From: Deltaproteobacteria bacterium
Lineage (GTDB): Bacteria > Myxococcota_A > UBA9042
DNA length: 64,000 nucleotides
Reading direction: 5' to 3'
Assembly (NCBI GenBank): GCA_020632665.1
Contig: JACKFC010000017.1
Coordinates: forward strand, 40,423 to 104,422
Of this stretch, positions 6,603 through 45,305 are shown one piece after another. A model generated the notes under the pieces. That model searched no databases. It saw only the letters and a program-made list of their open reading frames with translations, and was not told the origin of the DNA. Position numbers and translations under genes: made by a program. Each line of letters starts with the position of its first letter. Positions within the stretch are counted from its first letter, which is position 1.

Positions 6603-9600
6603 ATGACCTTCTCCAAGCGTTTGTTTGCCCCCGCTCGCCTCGCGCGCTTCGGCCCGCTCTGGGCGGCCGCGCTGCTCGCGACCTCGGGCTGCGTCCCCGG
6701 TGCCACCGACGTCCCGGATTGGAACAAGGGCTCGGTCGGAGGCGGCGGCGCCGTCTGCGGCAACGGCAGCTGTGAGGCCGGCGAGACCGAGAATTCCTGC
6801 TCGGTCGACTGTACTGGAGTCTCCGCCGAGTGCGGCAACGGCAAATGCGAGCCCGGCGAAAGCGCGACGACCTGCAAGACCGATTGCGCGGTCGGCGGCA
6901 AGGTCTGCGGCGACGGAACCTGCGAGGGCGAAGAGACCTTCGTCTCCTGCCCGTCGGACTGCAAGCCGAAGTGCAAAGACCCGATTGTCGACTGCGGCGA
7001 GCACGCCAACTCCTGCAAGAAGTACGTCTGCGGGCAGAACGGTGAGTGCGAAGAGGCCAAGCTCGACGACAACACGCCCTGCGACGACGGCAACAAATGC
7101 ACCACCGAGGAGCGCTGCGAGAACGGCGAGTGCAAGGGCGGCAAGGAGCCGGATTGCGACGACGGCGACGCCTGCACGGCCGATGATTGCGACGCCGCGA
7201 ACGGCACCTGCACCAACGTCGCCGTGGCAGACGGCACCACGTGCCCGGCCGGCGGGCCCTGCGAGGGCAACAACCAATGCCAAGCCGGCCAGTGCAAGCC
7301 GACGGTCTGGAAATGCGAGTGCGACGCGAGCAAGCCCAACGACGACGCACAATACGGCTGCGCGAAGAAGAGCCCGGCGAATAAGTGCAACGGCGTCTCG
7401 ACCTGCGTCATCAACGACGACAGCAAGAAGCACGAGTGCGTCATCCCCGAGAGCACCAAGGTCACCTGTGACAGCAGCCTCGACACCGACTGCAGCACCC
7501 ACGTCTGCAATCCGCAGAAGGGCGCTTGCGAGTTCAAGGCCAAGCCGAACAACACGCTCTGCGACGACGGCAGCAACTGCACCAGCGGCGACACCTGCTT
7601 CGGCGGCGAATGCATCCCCGGCACGATGATCTGCGAGTGCGATATCGTGAACTTCAAGTCGCAGTGCGAGAAGAAGTACCAGGGCACCGCGGGGCCTTGC
7701 TCCGGACAATTCTATTGCGCCAACCCCGCCGCCGGCCCCTATGCCGCTGGCGCGACCTCGGAAGAGAAGGCGGCCAAGACGCACTGCGAGATCAACCCCG
7801 CCACCGTCATCAATTGCGAGAGCAAGGACGACACGGCCTGCTCGGTCAACACCTGCGTGGTCGACGGCAACGACGGCGGCTGCAAGATGGTGCCGGAGAA
7901 GGTCGGCAAGCTCTGCGACGACGGCGCCGAGTGCACCCCGAACTCGGCCTGCAACGCGGCTGGGCTCTGCTCGCCGGCGCTCTCCGACTCGCCGCCGTGC
8001 GATGAAAAGGGCCAGTGCTCCAAGGCCGGCACCGTCTGCCAGGACGGCTTCTGCGTCACCAATACCTGCGTCTGCCAGGAGGACGCCGACTGCGCCGCGA
8101 AGGACGACGGTGACCTCTGCAACGGCACCATGTTCTGCAACCAAGCGACCGGCGCTTGCGAGCTGAACAAAGCGACCATCGTCAACTGCGCGAGCTTGAG
8201 CGACACCGCTTGCGTGGTGAATATCTGCTACCCGAAGCTCGGCGTGTGCAAGCTGACGCCGCGTGAGAACGTGTTCAAGGAGACGATCACCGACCCGAAG
8301 ACGCAGGCGGTGAAGGTCTCGGTCAAGCCCTACCCGGTGAAGAAGGTCGACGTCTTCTGCGACGACGGCAACACCTGCACCCCGGTCGACGAATGCGACA
8401 AGGGCGTCTGCGTCTCCGACGACACCAATACCTGCGGCTGCCAGAAGGACAGCGACTGCGCCGGCCAGGAAGATGGCAACGTCTGCAACGGCACGATGTA
8501 TTGCGACAAACTCGCGTCCGGCGGACCCAAGTGCAAAGTCAACCCGGCGACGGTGGTCACCTGCATCGGCGTCGACGACACCGTCTGCGCGCAGAATGTC
8601 TGTGATCCGAAGACCGGTTCCTGCAAGGTCACGCCGGTCAAGGGCACGGTCCTCTGTGACGACGGCAACCCCTGTACACCGAACGACTTCTGCAACGCCA
8701 AGGGGCAGTGCAGCCCAGTCGGCGCAGACGCCAAGGCGTGCGGCGCCGGCGGCAGCTGCCCGATCGGCTATTCCTGCTTCGACGGCAAGTGTGCGACCAA
8801 CGTCTGCCAATGCAGCCAGGACAGCGACTGCGCCAGCAAGGAAGACGGCAACGTCTGCAACGGCACGCTCTACTGCGACAAGGCCACCGGCGCCTGCAAG
8901 GTCAACCCCGCCACCATCGTCAGCTGCAGCGACACCGAGGATTCGACCTGCTTGGCCAACCAATGCAACAAGGCGACCGGCGCCTGCGCGATGACGCCGA
9001 TCAACAACAACAAGCTCTGCGACGACGGCAATCCGTGCTCGGCGACGCCAATTTGCGAGAACGGTGTCTGCAAGGCCGAGACCGAGATCTGCGTCTGCAC
9101 CACCGACGCCGACTGCGCGCCGCTGCAGAGCAAGAACCTCTGCGCCGGCACGCTCTACTGCAAGAAGGGTGCGACCGCCGAGCAGAACACCTGCGCCGTC
9201 AATCCGGGGTCCGTCACGGTGTGTCCGTCCGGCGACGACACGGCCTGCATGCGCAACCAATGCGACGCGAAGACCGGAAAATGCGCCATGGTCAACAAGC
9301 CGGACAACGTCGTACTCTGCGACGACGGCAACCCCTGCACCAGCGGTGATAGCTGCGTCGCCGGTGCGTGCGCGGCTGGCACCAATATCTGCGAGTGCGC
9401 CACCGACGCCGATTGCGCTTCAAAGGATGACGGCAACGCCTGCAACGGCACGCTCTTCTGCGACAAGACGGGCGCGACCAATGTCTGCAAGACCAAGCCC
9501 GGCTCGATCCCGACCTGCAACCCGACCGCGACGGGCAGCTGCTTGGTCGAGAAGTGCATCCCGGCGACCGGCAAATGCGAGAAGATCAGCGCCTCGATCT

Positions 9601-10535
9601 GCAACGACGGCAACAGCTGCACGGTCGACTACTGCGATCTCGGCACCGACAAATGCGCGGTGAAGTCCGTTCCGGATGGCTCGGGTTGTGCCAGCCTCGG
9701 CAACTCCGGTGTCTGCGTCGCGACGTCCGCCTCCGCCTCGGACTGCAGCGTGCAGCCGCAGGCGGAGATGGTCTTCGTGCCGAAGGGCGACTTCCAGCAA
9801 GGCTGCAGCGCCACCGAGGGCGGAGCCTGCCAAGCGGCCGAGCTGCCGCAACACGAGGTCAAGCTCAGCGGCCACTGGATGGACCGCTTCGAGGTGTCCG
9901 TCGCGCGCTACTCTGCCTGCGTCGTCGCCGGTGTCTGCAAGGCCCCCGCGATGACCGGCACCTCCTGCAACTACGGCGACACCTCCAAGCTGCAGCAGCC
10001 CGTCAACTGCGTCAGCCACGCCGAGGCGGTCGCATATTGCACGTGGTATGGCGAAAATAGCGCGGCCGGCAAGAAGACCGGTCGCTTGCCGACCGAGGCC
10101 GAGTGGGAGCGCGCCGCGCGCGGTGGTTGCGAGAACTTCAGCGACTGCAAGACCGAGACGTCGACCTACGTCTGGGGAGACGCGCCGACGCCGAGCTGCG
10201 CGATGGCGATCATGAACGACGGCGGTGGCAAGGGTTGCGACGGCACCGCACCCGCGGATATCGCGTCCAAGCCGGATACGGATCGCAGCGTCTACGACGT
10301 CTACGATCTCGCCGGAAACCTCTCGGAGTGGGTCCAGGACACGTTCTCTGCCAGCTACTACGGAACGCTCGCGAACCCGGCCACCGACCCGGTGAACAGC
10401 GCCGCGGGCAGCACCAAGACCGTTCGCGGCGGCAGCTACGCCAGCACCAAGGCGACCGACCTGCGTGCGGCGGCGCGTGCGTCGGCGAGCGCCGCGTCGG
10501 CCTCTATCGGCTTCCGTTGCGTGATCGTGCCGTAG
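6603..10535 (+). CDS. Giant lipoprotein, 1310 aa: about 20 Myxococcus-type Cys-rich repeats plus a C-terminal formylglycine-generating-enzyme/sulfatase-modifying (FGE-sulfatase) domain
   Basis: Lipobox-like ATSGC. Reiterated CDDGNxCTxxDxCxxGxC modules. The C-terminus reads RLPTEAEWERAARGG...YVWGD...GNLSEWVQD...RGGSY...FRCV, which matches the FGE-sulfatase fold. Confidence 0.85.
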   Translation: MTFSKRLFAPARLARFGPLWAAALLATSGCVPGATDVPDWNKGSVGGGGAVCGNGSCEAGETENSCSVDCTGVSAECGNGKCEPGESATTCKTDCAVGGKVCGDGTCEGEETFVSCPSDCKPKCKDPIVDCGEHANSCKKYVCGQNGECEEAKLDDNTPCDDGNKCTTEERCENGECKGGKEPDCDDGDACTADDCDAANGTCTNVAVADGTTCPAGGPCEGNNQCQAGQCKPTVWKCECDASKPNDDAQYGCAKKSPANKCNGVSTCVINDDSKKHECVIPESTKVTCDSSLDTDCSTHVCNPQKGACEFKAKPNNTLCDDGSNCTSGDTCFGGECIPGTMICECDIVNFKSQCEKKYQGTAGPCSGQFYCANPAAGPYAAGATSEEKAAKTHCEINPATVINCESKDDTACSVNTCVVDGNDGGCKMVPEKVGKLCDDGAECTPNSACNAAGLCSPALSDSPPCDEKGQCSKAGTVCQDGFCVTNTCVCQEDADCAAKDDGDLCNGTMFCNQATGACELNKATIVNCASLSDTACVVNICYPKLGVCKLTPRENVFKETITDPKTQAVKVSVKPYPVKKVDVFCDDGNTCTPVDECDKGVCVSDDTNTCGCQKDSDCAGQEDGNVCNGTMYCDKLASGGPKCKVNPATVVTCIGVDDTVCAQNVCDPKTGSCKVTPVKGTVLCDDGNPCTPNDFCNAKGQCSPVGADAKACGAGGSCPIGYSCFDGKCATNVCQCSQDSDCASKEDGNVCNGTLYCDKATGACKVNPATIVSCSDTEDSTCLANQCNKATGACAMTPINNNKLCDDGNPCSATPICENGVCKAETEICVCTTDADCAPLQSKNLCAGTLYCKKGATAEQNTCAVNPGSVTVCPSGDDTACMRNQCDAKTGKCAMVNKPDNVVLCDDGNPCTSGDSCVAGACAAGTNICECATDADCASKDDGNACNGTLFCDKTGATNVCKTKPGSIPTCNPTATGSCLVEKCIPATGKCEKISASICNDGNSCTVDYCDLGTDKCAVKSVPDGSGCASLGNSGVCVATSASASDCSVQPQAEMVFVPKGDFQQGCSATEGGACQAAELPQHEVKLSGHWMDRFEVSVARYSACVVAGVCKAPAMTGTSCNYGDTSKLQQPVNCVSHAEAVAYCTWYGENSAAGKKTGRLPTEAEWERAARGGCENFSDCKTETSTYVWGDAPTPSCAMAIMNDGGGKGCDGTAPADIASKPDTDRSVYDVYDLAGNLSEWVQDTFSASYYGTLANPATDPVNSAAGSTKTVRGGSYASTKATDLRAAARASASAASASIGFRCVIVP

Positions 10536-10575: not shown

Positions 10576-13500
10576 ATGAACGCGCACGTTCGCTTGCAGG
10601 CCCGCGGCTCGACCCGCGTCGCCCTCTTCGTCGCGGCGCTCACGCTCCTCTCCGCCACCGACGCCTGGGCCGCCTTCTGCACCGGCAAGCAGAACGGCCT
10701 TTGGTGCGACGGCGACAAGCTCGTCTACTGCAGCAACGGCAACGTCAGCAGCAGCCAGACGTGCAGCAACGGCTGCCAATCGATGCCGCCCGGTACGCCC
10801 GACCAGTGCAAGGCGGCGACCGGCTTCTGCGCCGGCAAGGCCAGCGGCTATTGGTGCGACGGCAGCAAGCTGGTGCTGTGCAAATCCGGCAACATCAGCA
10901 GCAGCCAGAGCTGTCCGAACGGCTGCCAGTCGATGCCCTCGGGCACCGACGACAAGTGCAAGGAAGCGACCAATTTCTGCACTGGCAAGGCGAGTGGTCA
11001 GTGGTGCGACGGCAGCAAGTTGGTCCTTTGCAAATCGGGCAACATCAGCAGCAGCCAGAACTGTCCGAACGGCTGCCAGTCGATGCCCTCGGGCACCGAC
11101 GACAAGTGCAAGGAAGCGACCAATTTCTGCACCGGCAAGGCGAGCGGTCAGTGGTGCGACGGCAGCAAGTTGGTCCTTTGTAAGTCGGGCAACATCAGCA
11201 GCAGCCAGAACTGTCCGAACGGCTGCCAGTCGATGCCCTCGGGCACCGACGACAAGTGCAAGGAAGCGACGAATTTCTGCACCGGCAAGGCCAGCGGTCA
11301 GTGGTGCGACGGCAGCAAGTTGGTGCTGTGCAAATCCGGCAGCATCGCGAGCAGCCAGAATTGCCCGAACGGCTGCCAATCCAATCCCGCCGGGACCGAC
11401 GACACCTGCAAGGCGGCGACTTCCTTCTGCACCGGCAAGCAGAACGGCGCTTGGTGCGACGGCGACAAGTTGGTCCAATGCCAGAACGGCGCTGTCAGCA
11501 GCAGCCAGACCTGCGCCAACGGCTGCCAATCGATGCCGGTCGGCGTCCCCGATCAGTGCAAAGCGACCGGCGGCACGGGCTTCTGCGCCGGCAAGCAGAA
11601 CGGCCTCTGGTGCGACGGCGACGCGCTGGTCAACTGCCAGAACAACAGCGTCGCCAGCAGCCAGACCTGCAGCAACGGCTGCCAATCCATGCCGGTCGGC
11701 GTCGCCGATCAATGCGCTCCGAGCTCCGGTGGCGGCGGCGGCACTGGCGGCAAGTTGGAGCTCTGCAATCCCTTCAACCCCGCCAAAGCCGTGACCTGCG
11801 GCTTCGGCTGCTACAGCGGCCACAAGGGCAGCGACTACGCCTGCGGCGACGGCACGCCGCTCTACGCTCCGACGAACGGCACCGTCACCAAGGTCGTCAA
11901 CAGCTACAACGGGCAGACCTGCTCGCCGGACTTCGGCAACCTCATCAAGATCGCGACGGGCCCCTACGAGATCATCCTCGCCCACATGCGCAAGGACATC
12001 CTGGTCGGCGCGGGTGAGATCCAAGCCGGCACGCCGATCGGCTATGCCTCCAATACCGGCTACACCCTCACGCAGAAGAACGGCACCTGGGTCTGCCAAC
12101 AGGGCGGCGGCCACCACCTGCACCTCGAGGTCCGCAAGAACGGCGTCGCGGTCGACGCCTACGGCGGTGAGGTCGTCTGGAAGAACTGCGGTGACATCGG
12201 CAACGGCGGCGGCGGCGGGACCACGACTTTCTGTACCGGCAAGCAAAACGGCCTGTGGTGCGACGGCAGCGCGCTGGTCGACTGCAAGGACGGCGCGGTG
12301 GCGAGTAGCCAAACCTGCAGCAACGGCTGCGAGTCGATGCCGGTCGGCGTGCCGGATCAGTGCAAATCCGGCGGCGGCACCGGCTTCTGCAGCGGCAAGC
12401 AGAACGGCGCCTGGTGCGATGGCGACAAGCTCGTGACCTGCAGCGGCGGTTCGATCAGCGCCAGCGAGACCTGCGCCGACGGCTGCGAGTCGATGCCGGT
12501 CGGTGTCCCCGACCAATGCAAGGCCAAGCCGGTGACAGGGCCGTGCGAGGGCGTGCAAAACGCCGCGCTCTGCCACCAGGACGCCGTCGTGATCTGCGTC
12601 GCGGGGGCCGTGCAGCAGACCATCACCTGCCAGTTCGGATGCGTCGACAAGGCCGGTGTCGTCCACTGCAACGAGCCCGCCGCACCCGAGCCATGCGCCG
12701 GCAAGGGCGACGGCGCGAGCTGCGAAGGCGACGTGCTCCGCCAATGCCAATCCGGCAAGACCGCGAGCGCCACGCCCTGTGCCTTCGGCTGCGGCGTGGT
12801 CGGCGGCAATGCGCTCTGCCTGGCCAAGCCCGCACCGGCCGATCCCTGCGCCGGCCTCGCCGACGGCGGCCATTGCGAAGCGGCTTCGCTGCGGACCTGC
12901 CAATCCGGGCAAACCGTCGGCGCCATCACCTGCAACTTCGGCTGTGCCGGAGCGCCAGGGCAGGGCGCCTGCGCGCTCCCCGGCGGCCAAGGGCCGTGCC
13001 AGGGCAAGCCGGACGGTTGGCATTGCGACGGCAGCAAGCGGCTGCGCTGTGCGGCCGGCGCGCTCGCCGAACAAGAGCTCTGCGCCTTCGGCTGCGGCAC
13101 CTTCGCCGGACAGGTCGGCTGCCTCGGCGTCGAAGGCGCAGCGTGCGCGGCCAAGGTCGATGGCGGCGTCTGCCAGGGCGAGCTCCTGCTCGGCTGTGCC
13201 GCGGGACAGGTGCAATCGGCCACCCTTTGCATGCAAGGCTGTGTCGCCGACGGTGCGGCACATTGCGCTGCGGCCGCGGGCGTCTGTGCCGATAAGGTCG
13301 ACGGCGCCTGGTGCGACGCCGGCGCCCTGGTGCACTGCCTGAGCCAGTCCGAAGTCAGCGTCGAGATCTGCAAATTCGGCTGCCTACCGACCCCCGGACC
13401 GGTCGCCGACGTCTGCGCTTCGGCGAAAGACGCGAGCTGCTTCGGCAAGGCCGACGGCACGTGGTGCGACGCCGGGGCCAAGATCGTCTGCAGCGGCGGC

Positions 13501-14649
13501 GTCGAGACCGAACGGGTCGCCTGCGCCCTGGGCTGCCAGGGGCCTGCGGGCCAGGCGAGCTGCTCCGCTGCGGCGGCGTCGAGTTGCGCCGAGCTCGAAG
13601 ACGGGACGCATTGCGCGGGATCCGCCGTGGTCGCTTGCGTCTCCGGCGAGACCACGCTGGTCGCGCCTTGCGTCAACGGCTGCGAGGTCGACCCCGTGCT
13701 CGGGCCGCGCTGCATCAAGGCCGAAGCCGCGGGCTCGGCGATCGCCGTCACCGTCGACGAGGCCGGCTGCGCCCAGGTCGTCGGCTCACTGCTCCTCGGT
13801 GACGTCGCGCACCAGAGCCAGCTCGGCTCCGACGTCGCCATCGGCGCCTGCTCCGACCGTACGATCGCCAGCCACGGCGCGCTCATCACCGCGCTCTCGA
13901 CGGCCTACGCCGCGTTGGGCGCGCCACGAGAGGCGCTCGGCGTGGTCGGCAACACACCGCCGCTGGAGAACCTCTGGCGCAACGAGAACGACGGTTACGC
14001 CGCCTGTGCCGAAGCCGGTGTGTGCTGCGCGCGATGGGATCGCAACCCGGATCCGGTCGCCTTCGACCTCGGCAGCGGCTTCGACGGGGCCTGCCTGCCG
14101 CCTGAGTTGGCCCTGCGCGTCGCCGCGTCGCTGGCCGCCGGTCGCCCCGTGGTCGCCGGCATCCACCCGATCGGCAACCCGCCCGGCGCGCACTTCGTGA
14201 CGATCGTCGGCGTCGGCGAAGGCGGCTGGCAGGTCCTCGACCCGAAGGGAGACGCCGCCCCGGTCGCGCTCGCCGCCATCGCCGCCGTCGAACACGTCCT
14301 CGATTTCGTCGCGATCCCGCGCCTGGACGGAGCCCCGAACGCGGCGTTGTCGCCCAGCGGCGCCGGCGGCCCGCTCCCCGGCGGACCAGGGCGGAACCAT
14401 CCGTCGAGTGGCGCCGACGCGGGCGGCGGCGCGACGGGCGACGCGACCGGCGACGCGACCGGCACGATGGGCGGCGACGCCGGGCTCGACGCGGCTTCGG
14501 ACGGTGCTTGGCAACCGGCGGCCGCACCGAGCGGCTGCAGCGCCTCTCCGGTCCGGGGACGCCTGACGACCGCGCCCTGGGCCTGGCTGACGACGTTGAT
14601 CGCCGCGGCGTGGGCCCTTTGTTTCGCGTTGCGCCGCCGCTCGACTTGA
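10576..14649 (+). CDS. Giant surface protein, 1357 aa: signal peptide, seven 50-aa Cys repeats, M23 (LytM) metallopeptidase domain, two further repeat families, a possible papain-like (C39-like) domain, and MYXO-CTERM
   Basis: Signal peptide LFVAALTLLSATDAWA. M23 motifs HKGSDYA and GGHHLHLEV. C-terminal GCSASPVRGRLTTAPWAWLTTLIAAAWALCFALRRRST fits the MYXO-CTERM pattern (Cys motif, TM helix, Arg tail). The possible papain-like segment is GCAQVVGSLLLG...AHFVTIVGVGEGGWQVLDP. Confidence 0.85.
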   Translation: MNAHVRLQARGSTRVALFVAALTLLSATDAWAAFCTGKQNGLWCDGDKLVYCSNGNVSSSQTCSNGCQSMPPGTPDQCKAATGFCAGKASGYWCDGSKLVLCKSGNISSSQSCPNGCQSMPSGTDDKCKEATNFCTGKASGQWCDGSKLVLCKSGNISSSQNCPNGCQSMPSGTDDKCKEATNFCTGKASGQWCDGSKLVLCKSGNISSSQNCPNGCQSMPSGTDDKCKEATNFCTGKASGQWCDGSKLVLCKSGSIASSQNCPNGCQSNPAGTDDTCKAATSFCTGKQNGAWCDGDKLVQCQNGAVSSSQTCANGCQSMPVGVPDQCKATGGTGFCAGKQNGLWCDGDALVNCQNNSVASSQTCSNGCQSMPVGVADQCAPSSGGGGGTGGKLELCNPFNPAKAVTCGFGCYSGHKGSDYACGDGTPLYAPTNGTVTKVVNSYNGQTCSPDFGNLIKIATGPYEIILAHMRKDILVGAGEIQAGTPIGYASNTGYTLTQKNGTWVCQQGGGHHLHLEVRKNGVAVDAYGGEVVWKNCGDIGNGGGGGTTTFCTGKQNGLWCDGSALVDCKDGAVASSQTCSNGCESMPVGVPDQCKSGGGTGFCSGKQNGAWCDGDKLVTCSGGSISASETCADGCESMPVGVPDQCKAKPVTGPCEGVQNAALCHQDAVVICVAGAVQQTITCQFGCVDKAGVVHCNEPAAPEPCAGKGDGASCEGDVLRQCQSGKTASATPCAFGCGVVGGNALCLAKPAPADPCAGLADGGHCEAASLRTCQSGQTVGAITCNFGCAGAPGQGACALPGGQGPCQGKPDGWHCDGSKRLRCAAGALAEQELCAFGCGTFAGQVGCLGVEGAACAAKVDGGVCQGELLLGCAAGQVQSATLCMQGCVADGAAHCAAAAGVCADKVDGAWCDAGALVHCLSQSEVSVEICKFGCLPTPGPVADVCASAKDASCFGKADGTWCDAGAKIVCSGGVETERVACALGCQGPAGQASCSAAAASSCAELEDGTHCAGSAVVACVSGETTLVAPCVNGCEVDPVLGPRCIKAEAAGSAIAVTVDEAGCAQVVGSLLLGDVAHQSQLGSDVAIGACSDRTIASHGALITALSTAYAALGAPREALGVVGNTPPLENLWRNENDGYAACAEAGVCCARWDRNPDPVAFDLGSGFDGACLPPELALRVAASLAAGRPVVAGIHPIGNPPGAHFVTIVGVGEGGWQVLDPKGDAAPVALAAIAAVEHVLDFVAIPRLDGAPNAALSPSGAGGPLPGGPGRNHPSSGADAGGGATGDATGDATGTMGGDAGLDAASDGAWQPAAAPSGCSASPVRGRLTTAPWAWLTTLIAAAWALCFALRRRST
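10675..11574 (+). repeat. Six in-frame tandem 150-bp coding repeats; the three copies at 10825-11274 are about 90-97% identical
   Basis: The TTCTGC (FC) codon recurs every 150 bp at 10675, 10825, 10975, 11125, 11275 and 11425. The copies at 10975 and 11125 differ by about 5 nt. Confidence 0.8.
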
Positions 14650-40409: not shown

Positions 40410-42209
40410 TCAATCTCCGGACGAGAGCACGGCGAGGAATGCGCTCTGCGGGATCTCGACGTTGCCGACCTGCTTCATCCGCTTCTTGCCCTTCTTCTGC
40501 TTCTCCAAGAGCTTGCGCTTGCGGGAGATATCGCCGCCGTAGCACTTCGCGGTCACGTCCTTGCGCAGCGCCTTGATCGTTTCACGGGCGATGATGCGGC
40601 GGGCGATGGCGGCCTGGATCGGCACGTCGAATTGCTGCCGCGGGATCAGCTTGCGCAGCCGCTCGACCAGGTCGCGTCCGCGCTCGTAGGCGGTGTCCTG
40701 GTGCACGATGAGCGAGAGCGCGTCGACGTTCTCGCCGGCGACCAGCACGTCGAGCTTGACCAGCTTGCCGGCACGGAACTCGATGACCTCGTAGTCGAGG
40801 CTGCCGTAGCCGCGGGTGACGGTCTTCAGGCGGTCGAAGAAGTCGTAGATGATCTCGGCGAGCGGCATCTCGTATTCGATGACGACGCGCTTCTCGGTGA
40901 GGTAGCGCAGGTCGCGCTGGATGCCGCGGCGCTCGGTGCAGAGCTTCACCACCGCGCCGACGTAGTCCGAGGGCGCGTGGATGGTCGCGAGGACGAAGGG
41001 CTCCTCGACCGCTTCGCGCTGGTCCGAGTCCGGGAGCTCCGCCGGCGAGCTGATCGCGCGCATCGTGCCGTCGTTCATCTTCACGTGGTAGACGACGCTC
41101 GGCGCCGTTGTGATCAGGTCACAATCGTATTCCCGCTCGAGTCGCTCCTGGATCACCTCCATGTGGAGCAGGCCGAGGAAGCCGCAGCGGAAGCCGAAGC
41201 CGAGCGCGGCCGAGGTCTCCGGCTCCCAGGTGAAGGCGGCGTCGTTCAGGCTGAGCTTCTGCAGCGCGTCACGGAGCGTCTCGTATTCGTGCGACTCGAC
41301 CGGAAAGATGCCGGAGTAGACCATCTGCTGGACTTCTTTGAAGCCCGCGAGCGGCTCGGTCGTCGGCGCCTTGGCGTGGGTCACGGTGTCGCCGATCTTC
41401 ACGTCCGAGATCTGCTTGATGCCGCAGACGATGACGCCGACCTCGCCGACCGTCAGCTCCTGCACCTCGCGGACCTGCGGCTTGTGCACGCGGACCTCGA
41501 GGACCTCGTAGTCGCGGTCGCTGGCGAGGAAGCGGACCTTGTCGCCCTTGCGCAAGGTGCCGTCGACGACGCGGATCTGCACCAGCACGCCGCGGTAGGT
41601 ATCGTATTGCGAGTCGAAGATCAGGGCCCGCAGCGCGCCGTCCTGCTTGCCGCGCGGCGGCGGGATCTCGCGCACCACCGCCTCGAGGACCTCTGCGATG
41701 CCGAGGCCGCTCTTCGCCGAGCAGAGGATCGCGCCGCTGGCGTCGAGGCCGATGCCCTCTTCGATCTCGCGACGTACCTCGTCGGGTCGCGCGGCGGGCA
41801 GGTCCACCTTGTTCAAGACGGGGATGATGGCGAGGTCGCCGTCGATCGCCAGGTAGACGTTGGCCAACGTCTGCGCTTCCACGCCCTGCGCCGCGTCGAC
41901 CACCAGCAGCGCGCCCTCGCAGGCGGCGAGCGAGCGGCTGACCTCGTAGTTGAAGTCGACGTGGCCGGGCGTGTCGATGAGGTGGAAGATGTAGGTCTCG
42001 CCGTCCTCGGCCTTGTACGTCAGTTGCACGGCCTGGCTCTTGATCGTGATGCCGCGCTCGCGCTCGAGGTCCATCGAGTCGAGATATTGCGCTTGCATCT
42101 CTCGGGCTTCGACCGCGCCGGTGGCCTCGAGGATGCGATCGGCCAACGTCGACTTGCCGTGGTCGATGTGGGCGATGATGCAGAAGTTGCGGATATGCGA
42201 GGCGATCAT
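40410..42209 (-). CDS. lepA: Elongation factor 4 (LepA)
   Basis: [20 protein letters not shown], 599 aa, LepA C-terminal domain. Confidence 0.95.
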
Positions 42210-42382
42210 GAACGACCTGTGGGGCGAATCGCGGGCCGGCTTGGCTCCGGATACGGGGGCGGGAAGGTAGCCGCTCCACCCCGCAAGTCAACGACGACAT
42301 CGGGGCGCGCCGGCCCGCGGCCAAAAAGACCACGGGCCCGCAGCCGTCCCGCTGCGAGCCCGCGTTCTCGGTCGACGAGCGC

Positions 42383-42649
42383 CTACTTGATGTGCTCGAC
42401 GCCCTGCTTCTTGACCTTGGCCTTCCAGACCGTCTCCGGCAGCCAGGACGGACGGTTCGACGGCGACGTCACCTGCTCGCGCCAGCCCTTGAAGACGTGG
42501 ACACGCTTGGTACCGCGCTCGCGGAGCCGGATGTCGGTGTGGCCGCGGCTGGCAGCCTTGAGGGCGGCGCCGCGGGGCTGCCGATTCGAAAAGACGATAT
42601 CGGTGTCCTTGCCGTCCTGCATCAGCACGAAGTTCTTCTTGTCAGACAT
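42383..42649 (-). CDS. MC1-like chromosomal DNA-binding protein, 88 aa
   Basis: NFVLMQDGKDTDIVFSNRQPRGAALKAASRG..IRLRERGTKRVHVFKGWREQVTSPSNRPSWLPE..KAKVKK tracks archaeal MC1 (NFVLRDEDG..VFTGKQPRQAALKAANRG..IRLRERGTKKVHVFKAWKE.V.AP.NRP.WMPEK..KPFVKK), as recalled from memory. GAGGAAG ribosome-binding site. Confidence 0.65.
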   Translation of the reverse strand: MSDKKNFVLMQDGKDTDIVFSNRQPRGAALKAASRGHTDIRLRERGTKRVHVFKGWREQVTSPSNRPSWLPETVWKAKVKKQGVEHIK

Positions 42650-42899
42650 GGTCTTCCTCACAATACCGCGCCAAGCGGGACAGTCGCCCGTGCCCTCCGG
42701 TGTCGACCCCGTGCCCGTTCTGGCCCGGTCGCTGTAGATGAATTCGGTATGGGCGACGCGAGCGGCCTTTGCAAGCCCTTTCCGCACAAAAAACCCGTGC
42801 AACCATGGCGCACTTGCGCGTATCAACGGGAGGCCCTGGCGCGCAACTCGCTGAAGCGTGGTTGAACTGCTTGAAACAACTAGCAAATCAAGATATGGC

Positions 42900-42918
42900 C
42901 TGATCCGTTCTGGATCAG
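42900..42918 (+). promoter_or_regulatory. Perfect palindrome CTGATCC-GTTCT-GGATCAG in the divergent MC1-like/slt promoter region
   Basis: Read from the sequence. Adjacent AT-richer stretch TTGAACTGCTTGAAACAACTAGCAAATCAAGATAT looks promoter-like. Confidence 0.25.
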
Positions 42919-43067
42919 CGCGCGGGCCACGACCGCCGATCGGGGCGTGATCGGCGGTGAGTTCTGGAGGCGCACCACAGCGGTGGTAGCCTGCATGCGC
43001 GCGTGGCGCGAGGAGGAACGGCTCGATGAGCAAGACGGGTTCGCAGCAGAGCAATGGCAAGAGCACG

Positions 43068-45305
43068 ATGGTGAGGCGCTGGCTCGCAGCCGCGCTGACG
43101 GCGGCCGTCGCGCTCGCCGTCGCCCCCGCTGCCGACGCGGCCGGCAAGGGGCCCTGGCGGCAGCTGCAGGCTGCCTCGCGCGCGTTCCGCGTTGGGGACC
43201 ACGCTGCTGCGCGCAAGGCGCTGGAGGCCATGCTGGCCGGCAAAGTGGCCGACAAGGACGCAGCCAGCGCCGCGCACTTCATGCTCGCCCGCAGCTGCGC
43301 CGCGCTCGGCGACGGCCCGGCGGCCACATCGGCGTTCGCCAAGGCAAGCGCGATCCGCAAGCTCACGCCGCAGGCCTACGCCTTCGCCGAGGTCGAGGTC
43401 CTCGCTGCCGCCGGCAAGAAGAAGGAGGCCCACGACGCCCTCGGCGCGCTGCGCAAGCGCTGGCCGAAGTACCGCTGGGCCCAGGCCGACCTGACCTGGT
43501 CGCGGCTCTACGAGGAGCTGGGGCCACCCGAGGCATCGGCCGCCGCCGCGCTCGGCCTCTACGACAAATCGCACCTGCACCTGCCGCAGGACGAGCTGCT
43601 GGCGCGCGCCGCCCGCGGCTACGAGAAGGCCGGGCAGAAGGACCGCGCCCTCGGCCTGTGGAAGAAGCTGCTGATGCGCCACCCCGAGAGCGCCTACATC
43701 GACCAGGCGATTGCGCGGGTCCCGCTCACCTCGCTCTCCATCGAGGAGCGCTTCGACCGCGCCGAGCTGCTCTTCAAGCGGCGCGACTACGAGCGCTGCC
43801 GGGCGGAGTCACTTTACCTCTGGGAGAAGAACTACAAGCGCTCCTCGATCGGCTATTTGCTCGGCAAGATCGGCAGCGAGCGGCTGCGCGACGACTACGC
43901 CGGGGCGAAGACCTATTTCGAGGCCGCCATCGGCGCCGGTGGGCCCTACGCCATGTACGCGCTCGCCTCCTACGGCATCGTCCTCGGCAAGCTCGGCAAG
44001 GTGAAAGAGGCCGTCGCCGCGTTCGACCAATGGTTGGCTCGCTACAGCAAGTCGGCCGGGATGAAGCGGGTCAACGAGGCGATGTACGACCGCTGTCGCG
44101 CGATCCACATCGGCGGCGACTCGCTGGCGGCGGCAAAGGAGTACGAAGCCTTCCTGCTCCGCCACCAGAGCGGCTTCGACTGGGGCAAATATTGGTGGTT
44201 CGTCGCCTTCTGGAACTACCAGGGCGGTGAATACGACAAGGCGATCCAGCAGATGGCGCGGCTCCGCGGCTCGAGCAACCCGCTGGTCGGTGGCAAGGCG
44301 CGCTATTGGACGGGCAAGGCGCAGGAGAAGAAGGGCGACGTGGCCGCGGCGAAGAAGACGATGCTCGCCTTGGTCAACGGCATGCCGCTGAACTACTACT
44401 CGGGCCTGGCCGAGAATTGGCTGGTCGACCACGGCTTCGGCAAGGCGCTTCCGAAGCGCCCCGACCTCTCGAAGGTGGCGTGGAAGGTGCCGGATCCCTT
44501 CTCCGGCATCCCGCATCAGGGGCCGGCACAGGAACTTCGGATCATCGCCCACCTCGGCGAGTTCGACACCCTGCGCGACGCCCTCGGCGACCGGATGCGC
44601 AAGCTGCGCAAGCAAATCGGCGCCGACCGCCTGGACCGGCTCGAATCCGACCTCAGCGACGGCCTCGAGGACTTCGCCCGCGACCGCGGCCGCGCCCTCT
44701 CACGCCACCGCAAGGTGCTGCGCAAGTGGCCGACCCGGCAGACGGTGCAGGCCTGGCGCGGCATCTATCCGCGGGCCTACGCGACCCACACCAAATGGGC
44801 CGCAGATCGCTTCGGCGCGCCGGAGTGGATGGTCTACGCCCACATGCTGCAGGAGTCGCGGTACAAGCCCTGGATGATCTCCGGCGCCCCGGCCTACGGC
44901 CTGCTCGAGCTGCTCGACCGCACCGCGCGTCGCCTCGCCGCCGAGCAGAAAGAGGACTACCAACTCTGGATGCTGATGGTGCCCGGCCACAACGTGCGCT
45001 GGGGGACGCAATATCTCGGCGCGCTGGTGGCCAAGTTCGAGGGGCAAATCCCCTTCGCGATCGCGAGCTACAACGGCGGTCCGATGCTGCTCGAGTACCA
45101 TATGCAGGAGAGCCGAGGAAAAGACTTCGACGTGATGATCGACGATATGGGCCCGCACGAATGCCGCAACTACGTGCGCATGGTCATCGGCCACTTCCTG
45201 CGCTACCTCGCGATCTACGAGAAGCCGGCCAAGGCGAAGGCGCTACGCGACAAGCTGCTGCCGCGATCTTGGCGCCCGGAGTGGAAGAAGCACCCCGACT
45301 ATTAG
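43068..45305 (+). CDS. Soluble lytic transglycosylase (Slt70-like: superhelical domain + C-terminal SLT domain), secreted
   Basis: Signal peptide MVRRWLAAALTAAVALAVAPAADA. Catalytic-Glu block HMLQESRYKPWMISGAPAYGLLEL. ASYNGGP. Confidence 0.75.
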   Translation: MVRRWLAAALTAAVALAVAPAADAAGKGPWRQLQAASRAFRVGDHAAARKALEAMLAGKVADKDAASAAHFMLARSCAALGDGPAATSAFAKASAIRKLTPQAYAFAEVEVLAAAGKKKEAHDALGALRKRWPKYRWAQADLTWSRLYEELGPPEASAAAALGLYDKSHLHLPQDELLARAARGYEKAGQKDRALGLWKKLLMRHPESAYIDQAIARVPLTSLSIEERFDRAELLFKRRDYERCRAESLYLWEKNYKRSSIGYLLGKIGSERLRDDYAGAKTYFEAAIGAGGPYAMYALASYGIVLGKLGKVKEAVAAFDQWLARYSKSAGMKRVNEAMYDRCRAIHIGGDSLAAAKEYEAFLLRHQSGFDWGKYWWFVAFWNYQGGEYDKAIQQMARLRGSSNPLVGGKARYWTGKAQEKKGDVAAAKKTMLALVNGMPLNYYSGLAENWLVDHGFGKALPKRPDLSKVAWKVPDPFSGIPHQGPAQELRIIAHLGEFDTLRDALGDRMRKLRKQIGADRLDRLESDLSDGLEDFARDRGRALSRHRKVLRKWPTRQTVQAWRGIYPRAYATHTKWAADRFGAPEWMVYAHMLQESRYKPWMISGAPAYGLLELLDRTARRLAAEQKEDYQLWMLMVPGHNVRWGTQYLGALVAKFEGQIPFAIASYNGGPMLLEYHMQESRGKDFDVMIDDMGPHECRNYVRMVIGHFLRYLAIYEKPAKAKALRDKLLPRSWRPEWKKHPDY

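Follow-up and report, generated by a model that had tools for sequence, protein, structure and literature searches.

Introduction

Chromatin proteins are usually taught as belonging to one domain of life each: HU to bacteria, and histones, Alba, and MC1 to archaea. Recent work on histones in bacteria has shown this division to be permeable. MC1 is a small, basic DNA-bending chromatin protein of methanogens and other archaea, and the archaeal protein bends DNA by about 116 degrees.

The contacts that MC1 makes have been described in an NMR structure of the Methanosarcina thermophila protein bound to DNA. Arg25, together with Gln23 and Gln26, neutralises the compressed major groove, while in the minor groove Pro72 of the arm inserts and Trp74 intercalates. 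Arg4, Lys22, Lys54, His56, Arg71, Lys81, Lys86, and Lys91 contact the backbone, and Ile89 packs on the sugars (PMC6776556). Two further settings of the family have been described. The mimivirus MC1-like protein gp275 is reported to bind, bend, and condense DNA (2024 preprint, 10.1101/2024.02.22.580433). Using archaea-only data, Hocher et al. concluded that marine group II archaea acquired MC1 horizontally (PMC7613761).

For bacteria, our literature searches found no dedicated study of MC1, only the passing remark that HU "might be additionally accompanied by ... MC1 or histones" (PMC5499826, 2017). The original prediction, made from the DNA letters, had called bacterial representatives essentially unstudied, which is a fair description. 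Here we describe an MC1 gene on a bacterial contig. New elements are the bacterial expression signals and the synteny conserved around the gene, the evidence that it is under selection, and its close relationship to marine group II MC1.

Results

A bacterial contig encodes an MC1-family protein

We analysed a 64-kb stretch of DNA (hereafter the window, meaning the whole stretch) from a 110,360-bp contig that NCBI labels as a "Deltaproteobacteria bacterium" metagenome-assembled genome (MAG). An open reading frame on the minus strand starts with the ATG at 42649, ends with the TAG at 42385-42383, and encodes 88 residues (MSDKKNFVLMQDGKDTDIVFSNRQPRGAALKAASRGHTDIRLRERGTKRVHVFKGWREQVTSPSNRPSWLPETVWKAKVKKQGVEHIK). 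Its product is a small, basic, single-domain protein of 10.15 kDa (pI 10.8; 20 Lys and Arg versus 9 Asp and Glu). We searched it against Pfam and found the MC1 family (PF05854) at 105.7 bits (E=1.6e-30; gathering cutoff 23), residues 3-87 aligning with positions 1-95 of the 96-position model. A phmmer search of all PDB sequences returned chromosomal protein MC1 (1t23/2khl/2nbj, E=8e-24; residues 3-87 aligned with 2-92 of 93) and, besides the MC1 structures, no other noteworthy match; no NCBIfam model matched. By these scores the similarity lies far beyond chance.

The original prediction had aligned the protein over its full length with methanogen MC1 and had proposed a search with the MC1 model as a check. 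That search gave a score far above the cutoff, and the motif string of the original prediction agrees with the phmmer alignment to the PDB protein. The identification itself is already in databases: the identical protein in NCBI, MCB9739616.1, is named "chromosomal protein MC1" there, and several relatives carry the same label. PF05854 was present in all 120 close homologues among the matches listed. The alignments thus identify the product as a genuine bacterial member of the MC1 family and not as a new kind of system; the family is known, and what is unexpected is the host domain. An archaeal (euryarchaeal) host is the textbook habit of the family and is absent here, which has no bearing on the homology.

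The frame of the gene can also be read from a GTG as a 327-aa open reading frame. Because a Shine-Dalgarno sequence precedes the ATG at 42649 and all homologues begin at the equivalent Met, we took the 88-aa form as the gene and rejected the longer frame as a spurious extension. The coordinates of the gene and of the features around it are collected in Table 1.

Table 1. Features at and around the MC1 gene (window coordinates).
Feature	Position	Strand	Basis or remark
lepA (elongation factor 4, MCB9739615.1)	40410-42209	-	starts 173 nt past the MC1 stop codon
TTGACT-N16-TACCTT element	42264-42291	-	between the MC1 terminator and lepA
Intrinsic-terminator-like hairpin and T-tract	42321-42364	-	18 nt past the MC1 stop codon
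MC1-family coding sequence, 88 aa and TAG stop	42383-42649	-	Pfam PF05854, PDB MC1 match, dN/dS
Predicted 5' untranslated leader, about 90 nt	42650-42745	-	inferred from promoter position
Shine-Dalgarno sequence GAGGAAG	42653-42659	-	read from sequence; 3 nt before the ATG
Candidate promoter TTGCAA-N17-CATACC (-35/-10 type)	42746-42774	-	cross-locus conservation; about 97-125 nt upstream of the ATG
TPR/SLT-domain lytic transglycosylase (MCB9739617.1)	43026-45305	+	Pfam SLT and TPR; divergent from MC1

As the original prediction stated, MC1 lies just upstream of lepA; both genes are on the same strand (Table 1). On its other side, 376 nt of mildly AT-richer DNA separate it from the divergent transglycosylase gene (hereafter SLT). 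The contig also encodes a PknB-type Ser/Thr kinase, RNase J, a ClpB-like ATPase, and a protein weakly similar to the gliding-motility protein GltJ. Elsewhere in the window two large open reading frames stand side by side, at 6603-10535 (+; 1310 aa) and 10576-14649 (+; 1357 aa). The former has only a C-terminal GldK/FGE-sulfatase-like domain and the latter matched no NCBIfam model.

Candidate transcription signals recur at bacterial loci

A strict sigma-70 consensus scan upstream of MC1 found no promoter, and the promoter call therefore rests on conservation of a motif across loci. TTGCNN-N16-18-[C/G]ATANN occurred within 350 nt upstream of MC1 at 20 of 30 related bacterial loci (0.42 expected from shuffled sequences) and at none of 40 archaeal loci. 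We infer that the copy found here, TTGCAA-N17-CATACC, is the conserved MC1 promoter and would give a leader of about 90 nt; the exact start and stop of transcription are likewise predictions. Rfam and tRNA scans of the window returned nothing, and the long leader is thus explained by no RNA element. The AT-richer upstream region of the original prediction is present, although the effect is mild: GC is 0.57-0.63 over 42550-42999 versus 0.70 for the whole window.

Downstream, a possible hairpin and U tract had been placed at about 42318-42360. We found a 14-bp stem with 11 G-C pairs and a 6-nt loop at 42364-42331 (minus strand), followed by GTCTTTTTGG down to 42321. The stem appears in both the MFE and the centroid folds, and the 86-nt region folds only marginally better than its shuffles (z=-1.6). 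Of 31 related bacterial loci, 20 had a hairpin with a T-run in the first 150 nt past the MC1 gene, where shuffles predict 4.8; its position is kept while the sequences differ.

Between this hairpin and lepA lies a further element (TTGACT-N16-TACCTT), with near-identical counterparts (TTGACA ... [TC]ACC[TC]T) in at least 7 related loci, which is probably the lepA promoter. With a promoter of its own for lepA, MC1 and lepA would be separate transcription units. We propose that MC1 is transcribed from its own promoter as a monocistronic mRNA that would end at the intrinsic terminator before lepA.

The intergenic region between SLT and MC1 holds two more terminator-like hairpins (42787-42813 and 42884-42907, minus strand), both upstream of the putative MC1 promoter. 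One of them consists of GTGCGCCATGGTTGCAC and then GGGTTTTTTG, and no gene on the minus strand would end there. These hairpins may be due to chance, or may be a bidirectional element or a small RNA.

MC1 homologues fall into two bacterial groups and one archaeal group

We next consider where related proteins occur. A word-indexed protein search with the MC1 protein returned 446 homologues, the named ones coming from MAGs called "Myxococcales", "Myxococcota", "Deltaproteobacteria", or "Pseudomonadota bacterium". We also scanned GTDB, at one genome per species, with the clade peptides Q[PA]RGAALKA and RERGT[KN]RVH. This yielded 498 confirmed stretches, and the best 80, which were fetched, fell into three sequence groups. 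Group A (NFVL...NRPxWLP) comprises high-GC bacterial MAGs, largely from lakes, rivers, and groundwater according to the record titles. Relatives come from freshwater data sets of the Mendota, Erken, Baikal, and Tanganyika type. Group B (YFVLQ...NGPxWLG) also comprises high-GC MAGs, with DegP/HtrA, a Ser/Thr kinase, and PmbA/TldD as neighbours. Group C consists of Poseidoniales (marine group II archaea), in which MC1 neighbours a 1747-aa PA14/LamG protein and SdhA/SdhB. In further carriers of group A, the gene beside MC1 encodes flagellin (L016) or the FlgF/G rod proteins (L029, with a homologous open reading frame in L082); thus, more than one bacterial sub-lineage and context is involved.

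Several MAG titles were at odds with the GC content and the neighbours of the locus, the contradicted titles being "uncultured Enterobacteriaceae", "Rickettsiales", "Enterobacterales", "Salinimicrobium sp.", and "Salipiger bermudensis". Among the loci concerned, L006, L007, L019, L031, L041, L046, L048, and L051 look Myxococcota-type, while L037 and L083 share the Poseidoniales gene neighbourhood.

An exhaustive HMMER search over 1.84 billion cluster representatives found only 292 MC1-family clusters at 50% identity. Of the unnamed representatives, a cluster look-up put a name only to P0142, as Myxococcales. The best match, P0120, was the sole representative at E<=1e-30 and falls inside the clade of bacteria and marine group II. 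Some metagenomic representatives are fusions by Pfam: P0146 (293 aa) and P0158 (282 aa) join an N-terminal AMMECR1 domain to a full C-terminal MC1 domain, and P0261 (223 aa) combines a Myb DNA-binding domain with MC1. In P0250, MC1 is embedded in a protein of 527 aa that has no Pfam match in its N-terminal part.

Two long representatives, P0147 (1681 aa) and P0273 (994 aa), were excluded. Both matched MC1 in several stretches, but they belong to the Listeria-Bacteroides repeat (Flg_new) proteins, in which TKEGHTFSGW resembles MC1 by chance. Summed partial matches even lift P0147 over the Pfam MC1 threshold. The Flg_new repeat motif PTKEGHTFSGWSE mimics RERGTKRVHVFKGW of MC1 and is a possible source of false MC1 annotations.

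We also searched mobile genomes. No MC1-clade match was found in 50,697 phage records, and none was confirmed in IMG/VR. Plasmid matches were only haloarchaeal (Halococcus and Salinibaculum, 37-39% identity). Five plasmids of the haloarchaeon Halococcus dombrowskii (NZ_CP095006-CP095010) matched the MC1 query, a single plasmid having as many as three matches. MC1-family genes are annotated on four of them, while the match on NZ_CP095010 is only partial and lacks an annotation. Such multiplicity of a chromatin protein on extrachromosomal replicons is unusual.

MC1 is held in a conserved gene order under purifying selection

Many independent MAGs share the arrangement esterase - SLT(-) - MC1(+) - LepA(+) - CaCA antiporter. 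Among the best 80 of the 498 GTDB stretches, MC1 adjoins LepA at 14 loci (L005-L031; LepA identity 69-98%) and has SLT directly upstream at 23, as it does in four Logan copies. SLT identities go down to 47%, and SLT is the most conserved neighbour of MC1. The identities of MC1 and LepA to the window copies are correlated (Spearman rho 0.63, p=0.02).

We then compared substitution rates. dN/dS of MC1 against eight relatives was 0.06-0.17, and the closest copies showed 10-16% synonymous differences and 0 non-synonymous ones. In base composition the gene (GC 0.64, GC3 0.91) resembles its neighbours lepA (GC3 0.94) and SLT (GC3 0.91). Low dN/dS, preserved synteny, and neighbour-like GC3 together argue that the gene is functional, long resident, and fully ameliorated; on the evidence of synteny, composition, and dN/dS, the reading of MC1 as a pseudogene was rejected. 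The comparisons point to old, vertical residence of MC1 in one bacterial lineage under purifying selection.

MC1 appears to have crossed between domains

In an 88-column alignment, the mean identities were 66% between groups A and C, 65% between A and B, 66% between B and C, and 50% between A and Methanosarcina. The bacterial MC1 protein is 57-77% identical to Poseidoniales sequences (mean 66%) and about 50% identical to Methanosarcina MC1. Groups A, B, and C all carry Gly at the position of Gln26.

We built neighbour-joining trees only, from the 88 columns and rooted on Methanosarcina. Groups A, B, and C, with some unnamed metagenomic representatives, formed a derived clade. Bootstrap values were 72% for group B and 62% for group C, while group A was monophyletic in 1%. 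After removal of the unnamed sequences, the three groups were monophyletic together in 256 of 500 bootstraps; among these 256, the root was placed within the bacteria in 113, at the split of bacteria from marine group II in 83, and within marine group II in 39.

Interdomain transfer of MC1, once or more, is well supported by these comparisons, because bacteria and archaea share a protein of about 66% mean identity that is restricted to narrow lineages in both. There is a weak lean toward a marine group II MC1 that is nested among the bacteria. The original prediction had left it to phylogeny to judge whether the gene is ancient or acquired; the clade that planktonic Myxococcota-type bacteria share with marine group II suggests interdomain transfer and then long vertical inheritance within bacteria. 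The bacterial clade is a candidate partner for the marine group II transfer, and we found no discussion of such a partner in the literature searched.

Nearly all DNA contact residues of MC1 are retained

To place the contacts of the Methanosarcina complex on the bacterial protein, we listed the equivalent residues: K5, R23, Q24, P25, R26, K31, R49, H51, R66, P67, W69, L70, P71, K76, K81, V84, and H86. The equivalents of Arg25, Gln23, Pro72, Trp74, Lys54, His56, Arg71, Lys81, Lys86, and Ile89 are conserved or conservatively replaced. Gln26, which is Gly27 in the bacterial protein, is the sole differing contact position, and this change is clade-wide. Between the helix and b3, Methanosarcina MC1 has a loop 5-6 residues longer than that of the bacterial protein; the short form is the norm of the family (65 of 75 representatives), and it is Methanosarcina, with its insertion, that departs from it. 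An AF2 model (pLDDT 93) predicts the element order b1-b2-helix-b3-b4-arm-b5, and in a Foldseek search with this model giant-virus MC1-domain models matched with TM 0.65-0.80.

We propose by homology that monomeric bacterial MC1 would bind sharply bent double-stranded DNA from its concave side. There the helix would present Arg26, Gln24, and Lys31 to neutralise the compressed major groove, and Pro67 and Trp69 on the long arm between b4 and b5 would insert into the minor groove. Lys, Arg, and His residues on b3-b5 would clamp the DNA backbone. The protein would thereby act as a nucleoid-associated DNA bender and compactor. By homology, then, its most likely function is that of a monomeric, largely sequence-independent bender of nucleoid DNA; the monomeric state, DNA binding, bending, and cellular abundance are extrapolated from archaeal MC1. 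A tblastn search for HU, IHF, H-NS, and histones found none in the window and the fetched loci, which amount to far less than a whole genome.

Discussion

Taken together, the results are best explained by a bacterial DNA bender of the MC1 family that has its own promoter and a monocistronic mRNA and that crossed between domains before a period of vertical inheritance. We hold this explanation as a whole to be quite probable. A chimeric or mis-binned contig, in which an archaeal (marine group II) fragment carries a gene that is not bacterial, might be suspected because, outside bacteria, Poseidoniales proteins come closest (about 70% identity) and because several of the GTDB records clearly carry wrong MAG labels. 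However, four independent Logan assemblies encode the identical protein between SLT and LepA, with the esterase/SLT context unchanged, and the NCBI contig does too; about 20 MAGs, obtained in different studies, show this arrangement again. Its GC and GC3 are like those of the flanking bacterial genes, whereas most Poseidoniales loci have a GC of 0.39-0.50, and the promoter motif upstream is of a bacterial type. The gene therefore has a bacterial host, an archaeal contaminant is untenable as an explanation, and we regard this reading as effectively refuted. No more credible is a recent, transient passenger on a phage, plasmid, or integrative element. MC1-family genes do sit on haloarchaeal plasmids and MC1 domains occur in giant viruses, but the phage records gave no match, IMG/VR gave none that was confirmed, and the plasmid matches came only from haloarchaea, at 37-39% identity. 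The gene is also flanked by housekeeping genes in conserved order, has a fully ameliorated composition, and is under strong purifying selection.

A resident bacterial gene might still serve another purpose. The MC1 fold may have been repurposed in bacteria as a low-abundance, locus-specific regulator or accessory factor instead of a global nucleoid protein, for example one that controls the transglycosylase gene divergent from it, or one that takes part in recombination or repair where DNA forms junctions. SLT is indeed the most conserved neighbour and diverges from the shared intergenic region. In addition, archaeal MC1 has a preference for DNA that is bent or forms minicircles or four-way junctions, and SELEX has yielded a consensus for it (PMC6776556). 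In Haloferax, other candidate nucleoid-associated proteins far exceed MC1 in abundance (PMC7613761), and HU is normally the main packaging protein in bacteria (PMC5499826). However, the link to SLT is not universal, since in other bacteria MC1 stands beside quite different genes (flagellin, FlgF/G, DegP, and kinases). The residues for non-specific backbone contacts are all conserved, and the strong Shine-Dalgarno sequence, dedicated promoter, and terminator fit a well-expressed small gene. We therefore consider a local role unlikely. A little more weight, though still little, goes to the idea that MC1 is ancestral in this bacterial lineage or bacterial in origin, that archaea acquired it from bacteria, and that it is called "archaeal" through sampling history. 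In the Methanosarcina-rooted tree the bacteria form a paraphyletic grade with marine group II nested inside, the root falls inside the bacteria in 44% of the bootstraps in which the three groups are monophyletic versus 15% inside marine group II, and horizontal acquisition by marine group II has been inferred before (PMC7613761). Yet such an origin holds at most for a sub-clade: bacteria and marine group II are one derived branch among the 292 clusters, and the named carriers outside it are Methanosarcinales and haloarchaea, with giant viruses added by fold. Support values are low, and 88 sites are too few to resolve the root.

We return to the preferred reading of a nucleoid DNA bender that crossed between domains and was then inherited vertically. 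Bacterial MC1 would be a second natural case of leakage across the chromatin-protein boundary, after the bacterial histones. With it one could ask directly whether a monomeric bender of archaeal type functions together with HU or as its substitute. It would be a clean natural experiment in chromatin-protein exchange between domains, within the limits set by uncultured carriers that are all MAGs, by the label that databases already give the protein, and by a function deduced from homology. The bacterial clade also suggests which lineage may have been the partner when marine group II gained MC1 horizontally, as archaea-only surveys had inferred. A bolder combination is that a planktonic Myxococcota-type lineage uses MC1 as a major nucleoid protein and that marine group II MC1 came from such bacteria. 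We doubt that both parts hold. If they did, a chromatin protein known as "archaeal" would have reached archaea again by way of bacteria, and chromatin architecture proteins would be interchangeable across domains in nature.

Comparison with known systems

HU and IHF are analogues of MC1: they are small and basic, they sit at the concave side of the bend, and they kink DNA through a hydrophobic residue inserted in the minor groove (PMC6776556). Unlike MC1, they have an unrelated fold, are obligate dimers, and are universal in bacteria. The histone HBb of Bdellovibrio bacteriovorus offers another parallel, being a chromatin protein of archaeal or eukaryotic type that bends DNA in a predatory, delta-proteobacteria-like lineage (PMC11317129). 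It differs from MC1 in its histone fold and its dimeric state.

The giant-virus MC1-domain proteins, including Mimivirus gp275, represent another MC1 outside archaea, and their predicted folds superpose on the AF2 model in the TM range given above. They differ from the bacterial protein in their low identity (16-32% over nine matches), in being embedded in larger proteins, and in being reported as tetrameric and packaged in virions.

The prototype of the family is MC1 of M. thermophila CHTI55 (PDB 1T23, 2KHL, 2NBJ). This protein and HBb have been characterised experimentally, whereas bacterial MC1 is known from its sequence. Compared with the prototype, it has a bacterial host, a shorter loop between the helix and b3, and Gly in place of Gln26. 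Its closest non-bacterial relatives are the marine group II proteins, which share the short loop, the QPRGAALKA signature with Gly27, and a length of 87-88 aa. These in turn differ from the bacterial protein in their archaeal context (the 1747-aa PA14/LamG protein and the succinate dehydrogenase subunits), in their lower GC, in a Gly at the position of Arg71 (NGPAWLP versus the Arg of bacterial NRPSWLP), and in lacking the bacterial-type promoter motif at all 40 loci scanned.
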